Origin: Patescibacteria group bacterium
GTDB taxonomy: Bacteria > Patescibacteriota > Minisyncoccia > Phycocordibacterales > 21-14-all-36-13
NCBI GenBank assembly: GCA_018899555.1
Contig: JAHIHZ010000011.1
Location: 1 to 51,831, forward strand
DNA length: 51,831 nucleotides
Reading direction: 5' to 3'
Both the position numbers and the translations under genes were made by a program. Below the pieces are notes generated by a model that saw only the letters and a program-made list of their open reading frames with translations, searched no databases and had not been told where the DNA came from. Shown piece by piece: positions 6,626-49,168 of the stretch. Every line of letters starts with the position of its first letter. Position 1 is the first letter of the stretch.

Positions 6626-7583
6626 CGCATTACACAATGATTTCAATATATGTCAATAGTGTATGCACACCACTGGGCAAGCAGTTTTCCTGCACCCTAG
6701 CGGTTTCCATAGGTTTTCGCTTTTTTCCCTCTCTTCCTAATCTCATCACGAAGTCTAACAATTTTATTAAAACCCCTGTCTGTAAGATGTTCTTTTTTAG
6801 ACATCATTAAAACAATTTTTTTAAAAATTTTATAAACTTCCGCTTTTTTGGCTTGTAATGGATTTTTATCAAGAAAAGGGAAAAGTTTCGTTGTTAAATC
6901 TTTTAAATTATTTATCTTATATTTTGAATGAGGAAACCATCCATATCTATCATAAGACAGATCATAAATTCTTCCACACCCAATTGTTATAAGAATTCTC
7001 TCTAAAATTTTTTGATCATCGGCACGAAGTTCTATTTCAAATTCCGGTCGAATTTCAAATCTTCTTTTAAGAGTTTTATGTTTCCCTATGCTTATAGAAA
7101 AAGATCCCTCTCCGTCTATAAAACCAGAAACATAATTTGGATTTAATTTTTTCCTATGAATTTGTTCCTTCCCAATTGGTTTTTTTAACTTCTTGGTACT
7201 ATGAACTCTGCTGACTTCTTGCATAACATTTAAAAAAGATTGCTCTTTTATATACCTCGATGTTATCACACACCGAGGATTATGCAAGATCTCCTGTGGT
7301 AACTATATAGACCATTTGTTTTCATCTCGATATCACTACACGCAATATGTTTACTTTGACACAGTAGGCTTCTCCATATACTCGCAGGATGACCTACATA
7401 TTGCGCCACAGACTGATATTCAAGCTAAAAACTGCTAATTTCTCCCTTCACTGAATTTCCTCACGGAAAACAGCTGAGATTTCGCTTCAAAACACTGTGA
7501 CTTATTTTGGCCTGATTTCCAAAAACTTTTTTTAAAAAAGAAGTTGGGCACAGACTGGCTTATATAATCGCACAGCGACCCGA
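6626..7583 (-). mobile_element. 958-nt intron-like insertion in 16S between E. coli C1395 and A1396, carrying a LAGLIDADG gene; ribozyme class not assignable by eye
   Basis: Exon sequence GCCTTGTAC stops at 7584 and resumes as ATACCGCCCGTCAACTC at 6625. Joining the two restores the universal CCUUGUACA(C/U)ACCGCCCGUC. The insertion ends in G. The group I core motif seen in the other introns is absent. Confidence 0.7.
6697..7287 (-). CDS. LAGLIDADG homing endonuclease (single-motif type)
   Basis: Contains YVSGFIDGEGSFSISI. About 190 aa, located inside the rRNA insertion. Confidence 0.8.
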   Translation of the reverse strand: MHNPRCVITSRYIKEQSFLNVMQEVSRVHSTKKLKKPIGKEQIHRKKLNPNYVSGFIDGEGSFSISIGKHKTLKRRFEIRPEFEIELRADDQKILERILITIGCGRIYDLSYDRYGWFPHSKYKINNLKDLTTKLFPFLDKNPLQAKKAEVYKIFKKIVLMMSKKEHLTDRGFNKIVRLRDEIRKRGKKAKTYGNR

Positions 7584-7615
7584 GTACAAGGCTCGAGAAC
7601 GTATTCACCGCAGTA

Positions 7616-7651
<36 letters not shown>

Positions 7652-7804
7652 GGGTCGAGTTGCAGACCCCAATCCGAACTAGGACCGATTTTTAGGATTG
7701 GCTCAGGATTGCTCCGTCGCGACCTATTGTATCGGCCATTGTATTACGTGTGTAGCCCAGGGCATCAAAGGGACATGCTGACCTGGCGTCATCCTCTCCT
7801 TCCT

Positions 7805-7885
7805 CCCCTCCCTAAAAGAATTTTCAAACAAGAAGTTCGGCTTCTCAAGAGGAAGCCAAACTTCGAAAATTCACTTAGGGAGGGG
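7805..7885 (-). other. expanded 16S helix (about E. coli 1160-1175 region)
   Basis: CCCCTCCCTAAG ... CTTAGGGAGGGG encloses a second hairpin (GTTTGGCTTCCTCTTGAGAAGCCGAAC). E. coli has only about 15 nt at this position. Confidence 0.6.
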
Positions 7886-8235
7886 CAGTCTCGTCTGAAA
7901 TTTATAACAGACAACAAGGGTTGCGTTCGTTTCCCTACTTAAAGGAACAGCTCAAGCCACGAACTGACGACGGCCATGCATCACCTGCCTATCCGTTAAG
8001 ATTTTCTGTTTCTAGAAAAACATAAGATAGGTTTCAAGCCCTGGTGAGGTTCTTCGGTTAGTATCGAATTAAACCACATAATCCACCGCTTGTGCGAGCC
8101 CCCGTCTATTTCTTTGAGTTTTAACCTTGCGATCGTACTACCCAGGCGGTTCTCTTAATGCGTTAGCTTCGCCTCTCAGAGGGTCGATACTCCGAAAAGC
8201 TAGAGAACAACGTTTACGGCGTGGACTACAGGGGT

Positions 8236-8795
8236 CACTTTTGTTACGAAGTAACAAAAAAATTAAAAATGTAAAAATCAAAATGAAAAATTACAATTTA
8301 AAATTCAAAAGTTACCGGATACAACATTTCTGTGTATCTCTCTATGTCGCCATAGAGGTCGGACTATATCTTCACCCGGCACTTTCTGAAAGTGCTGGGG
8401 TTTGGCATGTAGTCTCTGAGGAGCCTTGCGTGCTATAAAATGCGGGCAACAGCACCTTTAACACACAAGTTTCCTGCTGATTGTCTGCATCGGTTTGAGA
8501 TTGTTACTATAATATATCAATAGTACTCGAACATTCGCAGAGTTTCCAGCATATAGCCAAATTACAATCTACTGTTGCCAGTAGAAGAGACACTGTTCGC
8601 ATTCTCTCACCTACTTGAGTGAGCATTTTCTTTTTTAAAACATATGCAGGAGATGAAATAAAAATCAAGGAGTCGCATAGGAAAATGAAACTGTTTGAGT
8701 CCTGCAAGGCAGGATGAGTTTTTCATTTTCCGTCATAAGACGATTATGATTTTTTTCATCGAAACATCGTTTTGAAAAAGAAGATGCGAACGTTT
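8236..8795 (-). mobile_element. group I intron in the 16S 790 loop (between U793 and A794), no ORF
   Basis: Splicing restores GGAUUAGAU|ACCCCUGUAGUCC. Core elements CCTCAGAGACTAC (P7 5' side) and GAAGATATAGTCCGAC (J8/7-P7', compare Tetrahymena AAGAUAUAGUCGGACC) are present at 8345-8425. The last intron nt is G and the last 5' exon nt is U. Confidence 0.8.
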
Positions 8796-9111
8796 ATCTA
8801 ATCCCTTTCGCTCCCCACGCTTTCGTGTTTCAGTGTCAGGAAATGTGCTAGTTTATTGCCTTCGCTTTTGGTGTTCCCCATAATATCAACGGATTTCACC
8901 CCTACACTATGAGTTCCATAAACCCCTCACACCCTCTAGTTGTACCGTTTCTTTTGCAGTTCTTCGGTTGAGCCGAATGTTTTAACAAAAGACTAATACA
9001 ACCACCTACACACCCTTTACGCCCAATGATTCCGGATAACGCTTGGGGCCTCTGTATTACCGCTCCTGCTGGCACAGAGTTAGGAGCCCCTTATTCATGA
9101 TCTGATGTCAA

Positions 9112-9230
9112 TCGCTCCGCGATTCCCACGCGGATAAACGCAGACAACAATGCGGATAGACGCGGATAAAAAATATCTGCGAAAATCTGCAAAAATATCT
9201 GCGAAAATCTGCGAAGAAATCGCAAAGCGA
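9112..9230 (-). repeat. V3-region expansion of 16S built from ATCTGCG/ATCCGCG-type repeats
   Basis: About 120 nt lie between ...GATTGAAGAAG and TTGACATCAGATCATG... The segment consists of tcgcagattttcgcagatatttttgcagattttcgcagat... and tatccgcgtctatccgc... Confidence 0.65.
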
Positions 9231-9466
9231 CTTCTTCAATCATAAAAGATCTTTACGTCCCTAAGGACTTCATCAATCACGCGATGTCGCTCCGTCAGGC
9301 TTTCGCCCATTGCGGAAGATTCTCGACTGCTGCCACCCGTAGGTGTATGGACCGTGTCGCAGTTCCACCGGTGGAGGTCAGGCTCTCACCTCTCCTAGAC
9401 GTCATAGCCTTGGTAAGCTTTTACCTTACCAACTAGCTGATATCCCGCAGGCCGATCCCAAAGCGC

Positions 9467-9518
9467 CCAGCACATATTTTGATTTTTGAACAATTTCAAA
9501 AATCAAAATATGTGCTGG
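9467..9518 (-). repeat. 52-nt near-perfect hairpin inside 16S V2
   Basis: CCAGCACATATTTTGATTTTTGAA-loop-TTCAAAAATCAAAATATGTGCTGG. Confidence 0.7.
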
Positions 9519-9532
9519 ACTTTACTCAACAC

Positions 9533-9825
9533 TTTTTTTATTTTACAAGAGATTCTTTAATTCGCTTTTTTATATATGTTCGAGCATTGCCATAATGTTT
9601 TAATCCTTTCTCCCGAGCTCTTGCATCTTCTTCGGATCTATATGATTCGCAATATACCAAAATCCACGGTATTCCAAATTTAGTTGATTGATTTATTCCA
9701 TCATTATGATGTTTAAGTCTCTCGGATAAATTTGTTGTAAATCCGAAATATAAATCTTTCGTTTTTTTGCTTTGAATCACATACACCGTATAAAGTTTCA
9801 TGAAGCTAATTATAAAATAAAAAAA
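9533..9825 (-). mobile_element. 293-nt insertion in a 16S V2 hairpin loop consisting almost only of a GIY-YIG ORF
   Basis: Bounded by an 8-bp inverted repeat, CTCAACAC (9525-9532) and GTGTTGAG (9826-9833). No group I core is visible. Confidence 0.65.
9538..9801 (-). CDS. GIY-YIG nuclease domain protein (87 aa)
   Basis: The N-terminus YTVYVIQSKKTKDLYFGFTTNLSERLKHHN is the GIY...YIG/R/E pattern of GIY-YIG domains. Confidence 0.8.
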   Translation of the reverse strand: MKLYTVYVIQSKKTKDLYFGFTTNLSERLKHHNDGINQSTKFGIPWILVYCESYRSEEDARAREKGLKHYGNARTYIKKRIKESLVK

Positions 9826-9925
9826 GTGTTGAGACTATCAGGTATTATCCCGCCTTTCGACGGATTATCCCTGACTTTGGGGGTCGTTCCTACGTGTTAC
9901 TACCTCGTTTGCCATGTTTTCTCGT

Positions 9926-10064
9926 CTACGGCGAGAACGCTGATGTTCGCAGATGGGGCTCGCTTGCGCTCGCCTTCGCAGATGTTCGCTGATATTTAAA
10001 AATTATATCTGCGTTAATCTGCGTTTTTTATCTGCGTTAATCTGCGGTCTTGTCGTAGACAAGA
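9926..10064 (-). repeat. 139-nt module expanding 16S helix 6 (V1); near-identical copy inside 23S (49169-49366)
   Basis: CTACGGCGAGAACGCTGATGTTCGCAGATGGGGCTCGCTTGCGCTCGCCTTCGCAGATGTTCGCTGATATTTAAAAATTATATCTGCGTTAATCTGCG... ...GGTCTTGTCGTAGACAAGA is shared with the 23S copy. Confidence 0.85.
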
Positions 10065-10137
10065 TACATTCGACTTGCATGCCTAATCCACATCGCCAGC
10101 GTTCATCCTGAGCTAGAATCAAACTCTAACTTAAAAA

Positions 10138-21180: not shown

Positions 21181-21972
21181 TTACATTGGAAATAAATTTA
21201 TTCCTGTAAAAAAAACTATCATAAAACCAATTATTATGAACGGGGCAAACGGAACTTCACTCTTCATTGTAATTCGTTTTCCATTTAAACTCAATTCTTT
21301 TTCATTCAAAATCTTATTTAAGAATATCAACCCAAGACTAAAAATTGCCCCAACCCAAAAAGCTAAAGCGAGGGCAGATAACCCACCAAAAACCCCCAAC
21401 AAAAAACCAATCCCCAATAAAAGTTTGCTGTCTCCTAGCCCTATCCATTTCCCCCCTGAGATAAACCACAAAAAGAAAAGTGGGAAAGCGACTATCGGAC
21501 CAGAAATAATGTTGTAAATGTTTGGTATTCTAAAAATCAATTCGTTCATATCAAAAAAGATGAATAAAAATGAAAATAAAATAAATAAATAAACAACACC
21601 TTCTGGAATAATTTTATGTCTAAAATCGTAAATTGTAATAATCAAAAGCAAACAAAATATAAATATGAAATAAAATGTCTCCAGAGATAAACCAAATTTT
21701 ATAAATAACAAAAACGACAAAATGGCCATTGTAAATTCAACTATAGGATATTGTATAAAAATTTTACTTTTACATTTAGAACATTTTCCTCTAAGAAAAA
21801 TAAAACTAAAAATTGGAATTAATTCAAAAAAATGAAGAGTTTTGGAACAAGAAAAACATTTGGAACGACCAGAAAGATTAAGGCCTGTATTATATCTAAG
21901 AGATACAACATTTATAAAACTTCCCAAAATTGCGCCAAAAACAAAAAATGATATTGAAAATAGAATGTCCAT
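21181..21972 (-). CDS. pilD: prepilin peptidase (A24 family)
   Basis: Polytopic membrane ORF. N-terminal FGAILGSFINVVSLRY and a Cys cluster CFSCSKTL...RGKCSKCKSKI are typical of PilD. Confidence 0.85.
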   Translation of the reverse strand: MDILFSISFFVFGAILGSFINVVSLRYNTGLNLSGRSKCFSCSKTLHFFELIPIFSFIFLRGKCSKCKSKIFIQYPIVEFTMAILSFLLFIKFGLSLETFYFIFIFCLLLIITIYDFRHKIIPEGVVYLFILFSFLFIFFDMNELIFRIPNIYNIISGPIVAFPLFFLWFISGGKWIGLGDSKLLLGIGFLLGVFGGLSALALAFWVGAIFSLGLIFLNKILNEKELSLNGKRITMKSEVPFAPFIIIGFMIVFFTGINLFPM

Positions 21973-43924: not shown

Positions 43925-44752
43925 CACATATTTCTTAATCTTTTTAATTGATTTAGAATTTTACCCCCTATTTCTAGGAGTGTAGACTATATCTTCATCC
44001 GTCAGCTTCTGGCTGATTAGGATGTTGGCGTATTACAAGTATAAATCTGTCCCAATATATGTCGGAACTTTTCAATGTTATACAAGTCTGTTTGTTCAAA
44101 TTAAATTGAACAAAACAAGTCGTTACGGGGTCAAATCTAATAATTTTAGCAATTCATTTCTGTCTCTTTTTTTCTTAGTGACATAATTTTCTTTTTGTAT
44201 TTTAAGAATTAAATCTACAAGCATTATAAGTTCTTTCTTTTTCAAAAGATTTATTGATTTTTGTAAAATTTTACAAGAATTATATAATGCCTTAGCTTGT
44301 ATTTTTTTGAATTTTATATAAGGAATAAGATTTTTCAAAATTTTTTCTATTTTTTTAAATCCATTTATTCTCAATTCAGTCATCCCGTCTTTTCTTTTTG
44401 AAATATAACCTATATTTAATTCCTTTCTTATCCAATACAAAGGTTCATCATGGCGAGTGTCTTGATAAAAACACATCGTCGCCATAAAACGAATTCCTCT
44501 TTTGTTGTCGCTTCTTTTCTTTATCTGGAGCATTAAACTTCCATCTCCATCAAGAAAACCCGCGATATATGCTAAATTTATTTTTGATCGACTTCCCACG
44601 GTATTGTCTTAAAAATTATCTGGTCCTCAAGTAATTTTATCATAATTAACGGACCGCGTTAATTATTTTTCCACTGCCAGATATTTTATGAAGATTTCAC
44701 CGTTATTAGCCAAATTGTCATCTCATATTACTATGAGAAGTAGCAATTATTT
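43925..44752 (-). mobile_element. group I intron in the sarcin-ricin loop (between about U2656 and A2657) with LAGLIDADG gene
   Basis: Splicing restores CUAGU|ACGAGAGGACC. P1 is UAGU(A) with UGCUA. The intron ends in G. Core element GAAGATATAGTCTAC at about 43985-44000. Confidence 0.8.
44123..44599 (-). CDS. LAGLIDADG homing endonuclease (single motif, 158 aa)
   Basis: LAYIAGFLDGDGSLML. Its size is typical of homodimeric enzymes of this family. Confidence 0.85.
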   Translation of the reverse strand: MGSRSKINLAYIAGFLDGDGSLMLQIKKRSDNKRGIRFMATMCFYQDTRHDEPLYWIRKELNIGYISKRKDGMTELRINGFKKIEKILKNLIPYIKFKKIQAKALYNSCKILQKSINLLKKKELIMLVDLILKIQKENYVTKKKRDRNELLKLLDLTP

Positions 44753-44815
44753 ACTAGAAGCAAATCTCCTCAAAAATCGACGCCTGCAACAGATAGGAGA
44801 CCAACCTGTCTCACG

Positions 44816-45341
44816 CACTTTTGTTACTTCGTAACAAACGCAGATTCACGCAGATTATACGCGGATTTACGCAGAAGTTACGAGGACAAATCATTTCTGT
44901 TTATCTCTCCGTGTTACCACAGAGTGTCGGACTATACCTTCATCCAGCTGTAGTTTTTGTAAACTACGGCTGGAGACTGACATGTAGTCTCTACGGGGTC
45001 AAGCGCTTTGCTAAATTTAAAATGTAAATATCAAAGTTTAAAATTGTCGCGTCCGCCAAAGGCGGACAATTTAATTCACCACAAATTTTTCAAAGAAAAA
45101 TTTGTTCAACAATTTTGCATTTTGCATTTTGATTTTTCAATTTAGTGTTTCGCAATGCGAAACACGCAAACTTCCCTCGGTATTATCTTTTATTGGTCAA
45201 TAAAAAAGATTTCACCGATATGAGTCAGTTTAATATCAATCACGATTACTCGTGAAAGCCGCCGTGTTTTTCTCTTTTAGCTCTTTTAAACGTTTATGGA
45301 TTCAGAATACTTTGTAATCCGAAATAAATTTCAGATTACAA
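44816..45341 (-). mobile_element. group I intron at about L2593, ORF-less, with repeat modules in peripheral loops
   Basis: 5' exon ...UCAGACCGU|, 3' exon |CGUGAGACAGG, intron ends ...AAAAGUG. The internal guide CACG-GCGG can pair with both exons. Core at 44925-45000. Confidence 0.8.
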
Positions 45342-45350
45342 ACGGTCTGA

Positions 45351-46209
45351 CATTTCTTCCATTATTACTAAATGGTACTGACTATACCTTTTCCAAATTT
45401 TCCACCTTTGGAACTGACGTGTTAGCCCCGACTTTATTATGTCGGAACTCTGCCGATTTAATCGACAAGTCGATACGGGGATTATCAATCTTATATGCCA
45501 TTGCTTTTAGAATAAACGGAGCAACAATTGAGAGAAAATAATTATAATCTTTTCTTCCAATCGCGATTTTCCATTGATTTCTATCTTTTACAATTGTTGG
45601 AGATATTTGATACTTTTTCTTTAAAAAATCAACAATTATTTTTTGATCTTCTAAAGAAAATGAATGCGTGTTCAAAGTTATGTTTCCGTGATTATTTGAA
45701 CCATCATCCATATACCAAACTGCCAACATTCTGTCAGAGAAAATTGAAAGTATTTCTATTGGAAATTTTTTCACTTCATTTTTATAAAAAATTTCATGAA
45801 TGATTCCAAAGTTTTTTAGACTTTTTGTGTGAAAATACCAAGATACTTCGTGTAAATTTCTTTTTTTATTTATGCAAGAAATTTCTTTTGGTTCACAAGA
45901 TACCAAATTTTTTAGTATTTCGTACTTCCACCAGACATACTCTTTTTGTTTCTCTCCGTGATGAACTCGAAAGCGAGCGGTATAAGAAGTTCGTATTCCT
46001 TTCGATCGGCATTCAAGCCGAGCATCACCAAGCAATGACCCTATAATCACATCAAGTTGATGTGATGGAAATGTAGATTGTAATCTTCCCACGATATTAT
46101 CCATTGCATATATTTTAACATACACAATCGGACTTCACCGTTATGAGTCAGTTTACTATTCCTTTTTTATTTTATTCTCGATGAGAATTTGCTGGGCTCA
46201 TGAATCCTT
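45351..46209 (-). mobile_element. group I intron at about L2584 with double-motif LAGLIDADG gene
   Basis: P1 is GCUGGGU (exon) with GCCCAGC (intron). The intron ends ...GAAGAAAUG. Core at 45374-45480. Confidence 0.8.
45382..46125 (-). CDS. LAGLIDADG homing endonuclease (two motifs, 247 aa)
   Basis: [12 protein letters not shown] and [11 protein letters not shown]. Confidence 0.85.
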
Positions 46210-46293
46210 ACCCAGCTCACGTGACTTTTTAATTGGCGAACAGCCAAACCCTTGGGAGCTTCTACACCCCCAGGATAAGTCGAGCCGACATCG

Positions 46294-46644
46294 CAATATC
46301 ATTTTTCTCCTGTTACCAGGAGGATCGGACTATATCTTCTTCCTTCTACAACAATCAAATTGTAGTGAGGAGTTGGCGTATTAATATTTCGTTTGTGAAA
46401 TACTCTCTGCTTTCGCATCAGTCTCTACGGGGTCAATCCAGCACCTAATTTTTATTAATTAATTAATAAAAATTAGGTGCTGGACGACTTCCCACGGTAT
46501 TGTCCATAATAAAAATTATATCATGGAGTTCACCGTTATAAGCCAATATTTTAATCAAAACATATTCTCCTACAAATATGTTTTTTGATTCCAGGCTATA
46601 TGATTTCTCATATCGCACCCCGATTTAAATGTAAATTTACTTTA
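46294..46644 (-). mobile_element. group I intron at L2500, ORF-less (351 nt)
   Basis: Splicing restores GGCACCU|CGAUGUCGGCUC. P1 is GCACCU with GGGUGC. Core GAAGATATAGTCCGATCC and CCCCGTAGAGACTG at 46325-46430. Confidence 0.85.
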
Positions 46645-46687
46645 AGGTGCCGAACTCCGCCGTCGCTCTGAACGCTTAGGCGGAACC

Positions 46688-46720
<33 letters not shown>

Positions 46721-46884
46721 AATCTCCGGCCACATCTAATGTGTGCCGTCGGTTCACTATGTTCTGCTTTCGCATCTGCTTGACATGTCCGTCTTGCAGT
46801 TAAGCCAGCTTATGCCATTACACTATCGGCACGGTTTCCATTCGCGCCTAGCTGACCTTATAAACTCCTCCGTTACTTTTTAGG

Positions 46885-47289
46885 CATCATTGTTACCAAA
46901 TCGCAGATTCTCGCGGATTTTAAAACGCGGATTATGCAGATTGGGGCAAATATTTCTATGTGCCTCTCATTGTCGCCAATGAGATCGGACTATATCTTCT
47001 AAATCGTTTTTAAACAATTTAGTTCAGCGTGTAGTCTCTGGGGCTCTCTACTATTAGTAGATTGCCTGCTAGTTGTCCGCACCAAACAAATTTTTACTTT
47101 TTTTCAAGCAAGTATTGTTGGATACACCGGATTTTCTAGCATATAGCTGAATCCTATTTTATAAATTTTAATTAAATTTATAAAATACCCCCTCATTTAT
47201 TTATTTTGAAGTGGATTAAACTTCTGGAGGCGCCATAGTTTCAAGATACAGATTCTTACAGATTAAAATACTGATTTTCTGCACCCTGA
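46885..47289 (-). mobile_element. group I intron at about L2262 (just 3' of the P-loop), ORF-less
   Basis: Splicing restores GGGGCGCUAUCCU|CCUAAAAAGUAACGGAGGAG. Core at 46985-47045. The intron ends ...AAUGAUG. Confidence 0.75.
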
Positions 47290-47618
47290 AGGATAGCGCC
47301 CCACTAAAACTGTCCACCACGCAATGTCTCTCATCGTTTTTGCCGCTGAGGTTAGAATATACATCACAAAAGAATGGTATTTCACTGACGACTCCATCTG
47401 TTCCGAAAAACAAACTTCAAAGTCTCCCATCTATGCTACGCAGATGAAACATATATTCAATGCGAAGTTACAGTAAAGCTCCCGGGGTCTTTTCGTCCCG
47501 TTGCAGGTAACCGGCATCTTCACCGGTACTGTATTTTCACCGAGCTGTTCCCCGAGACAGTCCCCCAGTCGTTACGCCATTCGTGCACGTGTGAACTTAC
47601 CACACAAGGAATTACGCT

Positions 47619-48082
47619 CAACTTTGTTACTTTGTAAGAAACGCAACTTATGTTAATTACACATATTCGCGCAAATACAAGGTAAGAACATTTCTGTCTC
47701 ACTCTTTGTGTCGCCACAAAGTTCGGACTATATTTTCTAAATTATTTTTGTGTTTAATTTAGTTTGACTTTTAGTCTCTGAGGATGTTGCGAACTTTTTT
47801 TCTTTTAAAAAGTTCTCAACTTTCCTGCTGATTTTCCGCATCACCTTAAAGATTATTACTGTTTAAAAAAATTAAACGAGTACTCAAGGATACATTGCGG
47901 GTTTCCCAGCATATGGTCAAAATTTAAAGACATTTCACTTAATGTGAAATAGGCAACAACCTTTTTATTACCAAATTATTTATAATCGTCCCAGTCCTTC
48001 TACACTAGAAGTTAGAAACCAGAAACTAGAAAAATAAATTTTCCAGAAATCCAGCGTCTTAGTAATCAGCCTCCAGTGCAAA
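47619..48082 (-). mobile_element. group I intron at L1931, ORF-less
   Basis: Splicing restores CCUAAGGU|AGCGUAAUUCC. Core at 47720-47785. The intron ends ...AAAGUUG. Confidence 0.8.
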
Positions 48083-48096
48083 ACCTTAGGACGATT

Positions 48097-48844
48097 CATA
48101 AACGTTATCACTGCTCTCAAGCAGCTCCTCATGGTCGCCCATGAGATCGGACTATCTCTTCCAAATCCGATTTCTCGGATTAGGTCTAGCGTATAGTCTC
48201 TGAGGATTTTCTGATAAAGAGTTTCTATAATCTTCTATATTATATTTTCTCTTTCTTCCTCTCCCTTCATTCAATTTTTCTCTTAATTTTACTATTTTAG
48301 ACATCCCTTCGTTGTTTAAATGTTCTTTTTTATAAACTATTTCTGTAATTTGTGAAAAAATTGAGAAATTTTTTTTTTACTTGAAGAAAGAAAAGAATAT
48401 TTTTTGAAGAAAGGTATTATCCTCTCTTGAATTGCGTTTGGGTTTGAAATTACATAGTACCAAACTCCATCTTTTCGTTCTTGCAATCTGCCACATTTTA
48501 AATATTGTTTCATTAAAGCAAGAATCGTTTTGTCGCGTTGAGCGACATTTAAAGTCAACACTATTTGCCAACCGAGAGAATGATCTTCGCGTTTTCTTAA
48601 AGAAACATTGAAGCTTCCCTCTCCGTCAACAAACCCTGAAATATAGTTTCCTATATTTTGGGGTATTAATTTAAGCCACGAATAATCTTTATTCATAAGT
48701 TTTATTCGTTACTTTGTCAGAATCTTTCCTGCGGATTGTCTGCACCGTTGCATTGTTACTATCCTTTCGACAAGAATGAGTAGCAAACGGATACACCAGA
48801 GTTTCCCGCATATAGCTAGATTTTTTAACTACAATCGTCACCTT
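48097..48844 (-). mobile_element. group I intron at L1917 (inside helix 69 loop) with disrupted LAGLIDADG gene
   Basis: P1 is AACUAU (exon) with GUAGUU (intron). Splicing restores GGCGAUAACUAU|AAUCGUCC, a helix 69 of the same length as in E. coli with compensatory stem changes. Core at 48145-48215. Confidence 0.85.
48152..48696 (-). pseudogene. LAGLIDADG homing endonuclease gene interrupted by a frameshift in an A10 run
   Basis: The 119-aa ORF (48337-48696) contains YISGFVDGEGSFNV. After the T10 run at 48369-48378 the homologous C-terminus (..KKEHLNNEGMSKIVKLREKLNEGRGRKRKY..) continues in another frame. Compare the 16S enzyme ..KKEHLTDRGFNKIVRLRDEIRKRGKK... Confidence 0.7.
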
Positions 48845-48889
48845 ATAGTTATCGCCGACATTCACCAGGGCTTACACAATCCAGCCATT

Positions 48890-49040
48890 TGCATCACGCT
48901 ATGCGCGATGCTCAAAATTAAATATAAAATATCAAAGATAAAAAATATTGAAGTCAAAATTTTCTTTGAAAATTTTGACACCTAAATTTTACATTTTGAT
49001 TTTTGAATTTTGAATTTCATCACACGCAGTGTGATGCAAA
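48890..49040 (-). other. 23S domain IV helix expansion (three-way junction with AT-rich arm)
   Basis: TCATTTGCATCAC...GTGATGCAAATGG encloses two GC hairpins and an AT-rich module. E. coli has a short hairpin at this position. Confidence 0.6.
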
Positions 49041-49168
49041 TGACCCCCCGTGTTTAACCTTCTGGCATTGGTCAGGCGTCACCCCCTATACATCCTCTTA
49101 CGAGTTCGCAGGGAGCTGTGTTTTTGGTAAACAGTCGCCAGGGGTACTTTCGCTGCGTCCTTTCTCGC

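Follow-up and report, generated by a model that had tools for sequence, protein, structure and literature searches.

A 14-nt exon of 23S rRNA helix 69 between putative L1917 and L1931 group I introns in a Patescibacteria group bacterium

Gene model of the 14-nt exon and helix 69

We analysed a 51,831-nt stretch of DNA (contig JAHIHZ010000011.1 of assembly GCA_018899555.1; the whole stretch is hereafter the window) from a Patescibacteria group bacterium, a member of the Candidate Phyla Radiation (CPR), which carries part of a 23S rRNA gene. Two independent group I introns very probably occupy the homing sites L1917 and L1931 of this gene and enclose a genuine exon of 14 nt, AAUCGUCCUAAGGU, and their splicing would restore helix 69. 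On the minus strand the order of elements is ...GGCGAUAACUAU, a 748-nt intron, AAUCGUCCUAAGGU, a 464-nt intron and AGCGUAAUUCC... (Table 1). Both insertions show hallmarks typical of group I introns in their sequence. Sequence, structure and comparison with relatives all support a gene model of two group I introns around a 14-nt exon, which would add one more case in which a critical ribosome element, here helix 69 of bridge B2a, is split in the gene and reassembled through RNA self-splicing.

Positions were numbered by a blastn map to an Escherichia coli 23S gene (Ec), in which helix 69 starts at 1906 as expected; this reference copy is 3 nt short of standard numbering somewhere after 1931, so that later positions are about 3 too low. 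Ec1889-1917 mapped to 48873-48845 and Ec1932-2260 to 47618-47290, and the 14-mer therefore corresponds to Ec1918-1931. The exon pieces are strongly conserved, scoring 945 and 272 bits against the bacterial large subunit (LSU) model, and nucleotides 1918-1931 were left unplaced by the LSU covariance model in the Rfam search of the window. The mini-exon comprises A1918 and A1919 (the last two nucleotides of the helix 69 loop, A1919 pairing with U1911), the 3' strand of the helix to C1924, and C1925-U1931. Its motif AANNGTCCTAAGGT occurred once in the window with no mismatches, against 0.21 occurrences expected by chance at one mismatch. The predicted helix 69, GGCGAUAACUAUAAUCGUCC, has the E. 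coli length with two compensatory pairs (C1909G:G1921C and G1910A:C1920U) and folds into an E. coli-like 6-bp stem and 7-nt loop.

The junctions that splicing would create were found unbroken elsewhere. At the L1917 site, GGCGATAACTAT runs directly into AATCGTCCTAAGGT in many genomes without an L1917 intron (L019, L063, L066 and others), and GGCGATAACTAT and AATCGTCC are contiguous in L019, L063 and dozens more. The 'proteins' P0121, P0123 and P0124, products of an open reading frame (ORF) antisense to the gene, are also contiguous at this junction, reading ...KELRYLRTIIVIADI.... At the L1931 site, AATCGTCCTAAGGT is joined to AGCG without interruption in L010 and L011. Because both junctions are contiguous in intron-less relatives, the predicted helix 69 is a natural variant. 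The initial annotation of this DNA had placed a 14-nt exon between L1917 and L1931 introns at 48083-48096, assigned it to the 3' strand of helix 69 and described a helix of E. coli length with two compensatory stem changes. Sequence and coordinates proved exact, the assignment was borne out by the blastn numbering together with the contiguous junctions, and the stem and loop fold was the same.

The same arrangement recurs in three sequences of the same lineage from different samples, reached through the intron-encoded endonuclease: one ENA metagenome contig and two Logan SRA contigs (L002, L003 and L004). All exon-intron-mini-exon-intron junctions were identical to those of the window, which excludes an assembly artefact, and the L1917 intron of the window differed from those of the sister contigs by one substitution and one homopolymer A. 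One sister, L002, carries an additional insertion of ~540 nt near Ec2447-2449 (8040-8579) that the corresponding region of the window (46884-46645) lacks, and a peripheral hairpin of its L1931 intron is 37 nt longer than that of the window. Given these differences, intron content is polymorphic within the lineage.

Internal guides and their covariation with the exons

The two elements were characterized by the anatomy of their sequences, by covariation and by their homology with introns of the same two sites. In the L1917 intron, nucleotides 6-18 (GACGAUU-GUAGUU) are complementary, over 13 contiguous nt, to the ligated exons AACUAU-AAUCGUC. GACGAUU (48839-48833) forms a 7-bp P10 with AAUCGUC of the mini-exon and adjoins the P1 guide GUAGUUA (48832-48826), which pairs with UAACUAU, the last 7 nt of the 5' exon, placing U1917·G at the splice site. 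P1 and P10 together have a predicted energy of -18.6 kcal/mol against the ligated exons, whilst isolated folding of the P1 region was uninformative (z = -0.05), as expected for a 7-bp helix. The pairing of GUAGUU with exon AACUAU had been noted in the initial annotation and is retained here as P1 within the longer guide. Across L1917 introns, changes in the P10 guide are matched by changes in the exon (GACGAUU/AAUCGUC, GACAAUU/AAUUGUC and GACCGUU/AACGGUC). An alignment of the window intron, minus its ORF, with five further L1917 introns (three lacking an ORF) displayed P3, P4, P6, P7, P8, P9 and P9.1, with covariation in P3 and P4 (for P3, UCUAGC/GCUAGA, UUUGGC/GCCAAA and UCUAAC/GUUAGA). The homologous ORF-less L1917 intron of L029 scored 77.6 bits against Rfam Intron_gpI (RF00028), stem 1 of the model corresponding to P1. 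The ORF of the window intron would encode a single-motif, I-CreI-like LAGLIDADG homing endonuclease matching PF00961 (LAGLIDADG_1; 75 bits, residues 19-113), with 1,225 homologues.

The 3' tail of the L1917 intron had been described as partly mimicking the exon. Tail and 5' exon do share GAUAAC, but this full resemblance is found in few L1917 introns, lends no support to a splice site there and offers negligible pairing: the predicted energies of the tail were only -2.0 kcal/mol with the guide and -1.4 kcal/mol with the mini-exon. Many L1917 introns have UAAC or UAAU immediately 3' of P9.1; the motif is a recurring feature of these introns, not a local duplication.

The L1931 intron was recognized by Rfam Intron_gpI at 55.2 bits (E = 2e-11, 47976-47704), above the gathering score of 50. 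Simple L1931 introns in our comparison set, which was drawn from GTDB genomes, have a plain P1 (CUAAGGU/GCCUUAG) with a P10 guide, UCGUU or AGCU, 5' of it (L026 and L043). A subfamily of L1931 introns is laid out differently, with a hairpin at nucleotide +1, AGGAC-UGGGACNNUU, a linker, (U)GCCU, a hairpin, GUCCU-AAA and P3, and its UGGGACNNUU segment, a second guide, is complementary to exon nucleotides 1918-1927. The window intron has this AGGACUGGGACNNUU ... GCCU - hairpin - GUCCU architecture, and its long hairpin at +1 is an enlarged form of the 11-13-bp hairpin of the subfamily. Here the second guide is UGGGACGAUU (47993-47984), complementary over 10 bp to mini-exon nucleotides 1918-1927, AAUCGUCCUA; this helix is present in the minimum-free-energy fold of the mini-exon with the intron 5' region (z = -5.5; -13.5 kcal/mol for the helix). 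GCCU (47954-47951) can pair with AGGU 1928-1931 as the canonical P1 guide, with a U1931·G wobble, so that the L1931 intron can pair with all 14 nucleotides of the mini-exon. The U1931·G P1 of the window would follow from homology to L026 and L043 and from the UCGUU-GCCU complement of the junction AGGU-AGCGA. GUCUU (47931-47927) can pair with AGGAC, and the combined fold would then be pseudoknotted; the AGGAC/GUCUU and GCCU/AGGU pairings are putative, as those nucleotides were fixed in the pattern of the metagenome scan described below.

Covariation of the second guide was examined by a metagenome scan in which exon nucleotides 1918-1921 and the last four guide nucleotides were left free and AGGACUGGGAC was fixed. 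It returned at least 120 matches, of which 112 distinct sequences were analysed; all counts in this paragraph are among the matches listed. Exon nucleotides 1918-1921 were fully paired with the guide in 103 of the 112 distinct introns, whereas 2,000 shuffles averaged 47.7 such introns and reached at most 63. The pair types were AACG/UGUU (58), AAUC/GAUU (43), AACC/GGUU (7) and AAUC/GGUU (6), with further AAUU/AGUU, AACU/AGUU and GAUU/AAUC pairs. The guide extended by at least three of four pairs into 1914-1917 in 80 of 102 single-intron cases. The present analysis adds this second, exon-covarying guide segment to the description of the L1931 subfamily. Exons with AACG at 1918-1921 were accompanied by the guide UGUU, with a G1921·U wobble, in 58 introns and by CGUU in two (L063-L182). 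One L1931 intron had ACCU for GCCU in the subset with a locatable second guide, with a few more identified by eye; ACCU would give U1931-A at the splice site, not the usual U·G.

Two further pairings were considered and set aside. ACGCU (48057-48053), in the enlarged hairpin, could serve as a lineage-specific P10 guide for AGCGU, but a 5-mer within 84 nt has an estimated chance expectation of ~8 % and the pairing is not claimed. AUAAAU, the 6 nt that follow the L1931 guide, could pair with GUUUAU of the L1917 tail with the terminal G bulged; this is not conserved in L002 and is probably due to chance.

Predicted splicing and competition for the 14-nt exon, and alternative readings

Group I introns self-splice by a standard two-step guanosine pathway, and bacterial 23S group I introns, including the L1917 intron of Coxiella, reportedly self-splice, to go by the titles of papers on them. 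Guanosine-initiated self-splicing of both introns would join ...AACUAU, AAUCGUCCUAAGGU and AGCGUAAUU into GGCGATAACTATAATCGTCCTAAGGTAGCGTAATTCC, restoring the canonical helix 69 of bridge B2a and the conserved 1925-1935 strand. The L1917 intron would align both of its exons on a single 13-nt guide, with GUAGUU(A) for P1 and GACGAUU for P10. The parts of the L1931 guide cover the whole mini-exon, which would therefore be held after 5' cleavage, and after that cleavage the long guide would retain the 5' exon fragment whose 3' end is the mini-exon. Either order of splicing would give the same product. In the precursor the L1931 guide probably holds the mini-exon, and helix 69 would form only after both introns have been removed. 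Splicing in the host, the pseudoknotted P1 architecture and any order of reactions are what we infer from the sequences.

Nucleotides 1918-1924 have three mutually exclusive partners, namely the L1917 P10 guide (-7.6 kcal/mol), the L1931 guide (to 1927; the -13.5 kcal/mol noted above) and the 5' strand of helix 69 (-7.1 kcal/mol). Of the three, pairing with the L1931 guide has the most favourable predicted energy, so that an interaction between the two splicing reactions is probable. The long guide has not evolved to hold the mini-exon, given that 102 of the 112 distinct introns among the matches listed have no L1917 neighbour. A covarying second L1931 guide would explain how a 14-nt exon is held during splicing, and would allow competition or coupling of neighbouring ribozymes to be tested.

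L1917 and L1931 introns were combined in ten distinct sequences from about eight lineages among the matches listed. In five of these (L029 in part, L086, L091, L102 and L110), the 4 nt that follow the L1931 guide find their complement at the 3' terminus of the preceding L1917 intron, terminal G included, rather than in the ligated exon (for example GCAG/CUGC, GAUG/UAUC and UAUG/CAUA). The unspliced context was favoured by 7-8 kcal/mol in L086, L091 and L110, with the two contexts about equal in L029 and L102. The same 4 nt pair with CUAU of the ligated exon in the other five sequences (the window lineage, L114, L130 and L174), the window being nearly neutral (-17.4 kcal/mol ligated versus -16.7 kcal/mol unspliced). 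These 4-nt complements in a handful of lineages are suggestive of an L1931 intron co-evolving with the 3' splice junction of its neighbour. As 1918-1924 are claimed by L1917 P10, the L1931 guide and helix 69, the two introns may not be independent and may splice in a fixed order or in a coupled manner, a tentative idea that we hold to be possible but rather unlikely; if true, crosstalk between introns would fix the order of their removal. A related arrangement, with L1917 and L1951 introns around a 34-nt exon, was observed in Ca. Zambryskibacteria SZUA-15 (L005/L006/L009; L005 5783-6975).

Several results weigh against the splicing of two introns around a genuine 14-nt exon. An exact search for the ligated 48-mer exon sequence in JGI metagenome contigs gave no matches, and a search of a 5.8-billion-protein set with the junction-spanning antisense ORF returned no spliced or intron-less copy of the lineage; its matches were solely relatives from other taxa with 54-79 % identity, in which the junction is contiguous. 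The initial annotation had proposed covariance models as a check on the intron boundaries. The L1917 intron of the window was matched by Rfam Intron_gpI in its 3' half only, below threshold (19.9 bits, E = 0.13), because an ORF of ~470 nt splits P6 and the core. The canonical L1931 P1 is only 4 bp long, the window L1931 P10 is weak (UGUU with two G·U pairs), and in a pseudoknot-free fold the GCC of the L1931 guide is held in a local hairpin. An A10 run (48378-48369) breaks the endonuclease frame after 119 aa as assembled, where A11 would give 181 aa; the three sister assemblies have A11 and the intact 181-aa ORF, and the homologue P0001 is intact and 99 % identical; either the homopolymer was misread during sequencing or the endonuclease has recently decayed. 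Lastly, going by the title of Everett et al. 1999, the L1931 intron of Simkania reportedly remains unspliced in mature 23S rRNA.

The Simkania case, to be compared with intervening sequences cut by RNase III, would together with the missing spliced sequence of the lineage, the short L1931 P1 and P10 and the frameshift in an endonuclease that is possibly a maturase also fit real group I-derived insertions of which one or both stay unspliced, so that the mature 23S rRNA retains them or is fragmented at them and the 14-mer is never joined. We consider this improbable: both introns have intact cores, a terminal G and guides matched to their exons, lineage-specific variants included; bridge B2a would be disrupted by inserts of 748 nt in the helix 69 loop and of 464 nt at 1931; and insertions in CPR rRNA genes are stated to be removed from transcripts in excerpts of a CPR survey (PMC11270868). 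The many insertions in the gene, the frameshifted endonuclease gene and the absence of linkage between the 16S and 23S genes might equally be taken as signs of a decaying rRNA pseudogene or an assembly chimera, with the 14-mer a functionless relic. This is very improbable in view of the high conservation of the exon segments, the recurrence of this structure, with near-identical sequence, in three independent assemblies, and the finding, in the same excerpts, that multi-intron, unlinked rRNA genes are typical of CPR (PMC11270868).

Splicing at other junctions, for example at the intron-internal GAUAACG mimic or at a U1926 site in the UGGGACGAUU helix, would yield an exon that differs from the 14-mer, and the GAUAAC shared by L1917 tail and 5' exon and a U1926·G wobble inside the 10-bp helix could be cited for it. 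It is hardly credible, since it would destroy the universally conserved 1911-1935 region, whilst the proposed junctions exactly match intron-less relatives and are complemented exactly, once ligated, by the L1917 P1/P10 and the L1931-family UCGUU-GCCU guides, and the mimic pairs negligibly. A splice site at L1926 was likewise rejected, as its 3' genomic flank lacks the AAGGU that this model needs and the family UCGUU-GCCU guide matches AGGU-AGCGA. The model in which the B2a helix is encoded by two exons, as first annotated, was supported by all computational tests, with splicing of the two introns as its prediction.

Further insertions and comparison with known systems

The gene and its surroundings contain further insertions (Table 1). 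At least four more are present in the same 23S gene 3' of the L1931 intron (43925-47289, minus strand). Nine universally conserved nucleotides, UUAGAACGU (standard Ec2585-2593), are missing between the exons ...GAGCUGGGU and CGUGAGACAG... (44816-46209); a simple search did not find UUAGAACGU as one piece within this 1.4-kb insertion, and it is presumably the 'micro-exon' of the initial annotation. GC-containing hairpins (GCAUCACACUGCGUGUGAUG... and ...GCAUCGCGCAUAGCGUGAUGC) border the AT-rich insertion of the helix 68 region, which bears no group I signature and resembles an intervening sequence or an expansion; similar AT-rich insertions are present further 5' in the 23S gene. As they lie ~33 kb apart, the 16S and 23S genes are unlinked. 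The NAD-dependent DNA ligase (LigA) of the window shares 100 % identity with a protein labelled 'Patescibacteria group bacterium' and has its next relatives in Paceibacterota; the remaining genes are ordinary bacterial genes.

Table 1. Coordinates of the 23S rRNA exons, the putative introns with their predicted structural elements, and other rRNA gene features in the window
Feature	Position	Strand	Remark
3' part of 23S rRNA gene	window right end	minus	Rfam: two LSU pieces and several group I intron matches
Region with AT-rich insertion, ~146 nt	48874-49053	minus	helix 68 region (Ec1855-1888)
5' exon ...GUCGGCGAUAACUAU	end 48845	minus	
5' exon end, GGCGAUAACUAU	48845..48856	minus	helix 69 5' strand and loop, Ec1906-1917
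L1917 group I intron, 748 nt	48097..48844	minus	starts AAGGUGACGAUUGUAGUU, ends ...GAUAACGUUUAUG
L1917 internal guide	48826..48839	minus	P10 and P1 strands
L1917 P3	48820-48815 / 48190-48185	minus	
L1917 P4	48809-48805 / 48735-48731	minus	
LAGLIDADG homing endonuclease gene	48152..48696	minus	single-motif; inside L1917 intron, P6
L1917 P7	48199-48193 / 48155-48150	minus	
L1917 P9	48148-48127	minus	
L1917 P9.1	48125-48110	minus	
L1917 3' tail GAUAACGUUUAUG	48097..48109	minus	'exon mimic'
L1917 terminal G (omegaG)	48097	minus	
Mini-exon AAUCGUCCUAAGGU, 14 nt	48083..48096	minus	Ec1918-1931
L1931 group I intron, 464 nt	47619..48082	minus	no ORF; starts UUUGCACUGG, ends ACAAAGUUG (...AAAGUUG)
Long hairpin from intron nt +1	47999..48082	minus	UUUGCAC ... 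GUGUAGA
Conserved block AGGAC-UGGGACGAUU	47984..47998	minus	
P1 guide region	47927..47955	minus	UGCCU 47955-47951, P2 hairpin 47950-47932, GUCUU 47931-47927
L1931 P3	47922-47916 / 47768-47763	minus	
L1931 P4	47910-47905 / 47831-47826	minus	
L1931 P7	47777-47771 / 47731-47726	minus	
L1931 P9	47721-47704	minus	
L1931 terminal G	47619	minus	
3' exon start AGCGUAAUUCCUUG	47605..47618	minus	Ec1932-1945
Group I match	47289-46885	minus	70.9 bits
Group I match	46644-46294	minus	39.9 bits; near Ec2500
LAGLIDADG_2 ORF and group I match	46209-44816	minus	48.2 bits
LAGLIDADG_1 ORF	44751-43925	minus	near Ec2657
16S rRNA gene	7165-10134	minus	~33 kb from 23S gene, same strand; range takes in the group II match below
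Group I intron in 16S gene	8340-8618	minus	83 bits
Group II intron domain match	7165-7254	minus	just past 16S 3' end

The combination of L1917 and L1931 introns is already known from Synechococcus sp. C9 and from a diatom plastid, and both sites are classical homing sites and insertion hot spots in CPR rRNA genes. Synechococcus sp. C9 (DQ421380) has introns at L1917, L1931 and L2593 (Haugen et al. 2007, PMC1995217). To judge from excerpts of that paper, it resembles the window in that a single bacterial 23S gene carries both L1917 and L1931 introns, which leaves the same 14-nt exon between them; this exon passes there without comment. The L1917 intron of Synechococcus sp. C9 measures 743 nt and has an ORF of 181 aa, against 748 nt and a repaired ORF of 181 aa in the window, and the single-motif LAGLIDADG ORF takes the same course in both, spanning P6, P7, P3 and P8 into P9. 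The L1931 introns differ, that of the window being 464 nt with no endonuclease gene and an enlarged 5' hairpin and that of Synechococcus sp. C9 being 666 nt (PMC1995217). The window also differs in its frameshifted L1917 endonuclease and in its host, a CPR bacterium and not a cyanobacterium.

Coxiella burnetii reportedly carries the 23S introns Cbu.L1917 and Cbu.L1951 around a 34-bp exon, and one of the two elements is said to lack a terminal G, both going by the title of Raghavan et al. 2007; Ca. Zambryskibacteria (above) shares this L1917/L1951 layout. The L1917 site is thus used as in the window, with the second site at 1951 instead of 1931 and an exon of 34 instead of 14 nt; Cbu.L1917 has been reported as IB2. 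The plastid rrl of Navicula vanseea has IB4 introns at 1917 and 1931 (PMC11019260); unlike the window, the host genome is organellar and both introns contain endonuclease genes. In the archaeal contig KP308720.1, an LSU/1923 intron ends at 21763 and an LSU/1931 intron starts at 21772 (Nawrocki et al. 2018, PMC6125680), so that by the published coordinates the exon between them is 8 nt, shorter than the 14 nt of the window, in an archaeal host. IB4, defined by the absence of P2 and a complex P5, is the literature subgroup label for L1917/L1931 introns and stands here as a literature label only; the hairpin between GCCU and P3 of the window L1931 element is labelled P2 here.

Within CPR, sites 1917, 1931, 1952, 2593, 2604 and 2657 of the 23S gene are frequently occupied, with LAGLIDADG_1 genes, and many genes contain multiple insertions, according to excerpts of the catalogue of Tsurumaki et al. 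2024 (PMC11270868). The window conforms to this pattern; the catalogue delimits insertions by comparison with E. coli and not by splice junctions, and its excerpted passages describe neither the mini-exon nor the guide pairings (PMC11270868). Mini-exons between organellar introns are a recognized annotation problem; automatic pipelines without exon-aware handling would mis-model the rRNA of the window, and the same is to be expected in many CPR genomes.

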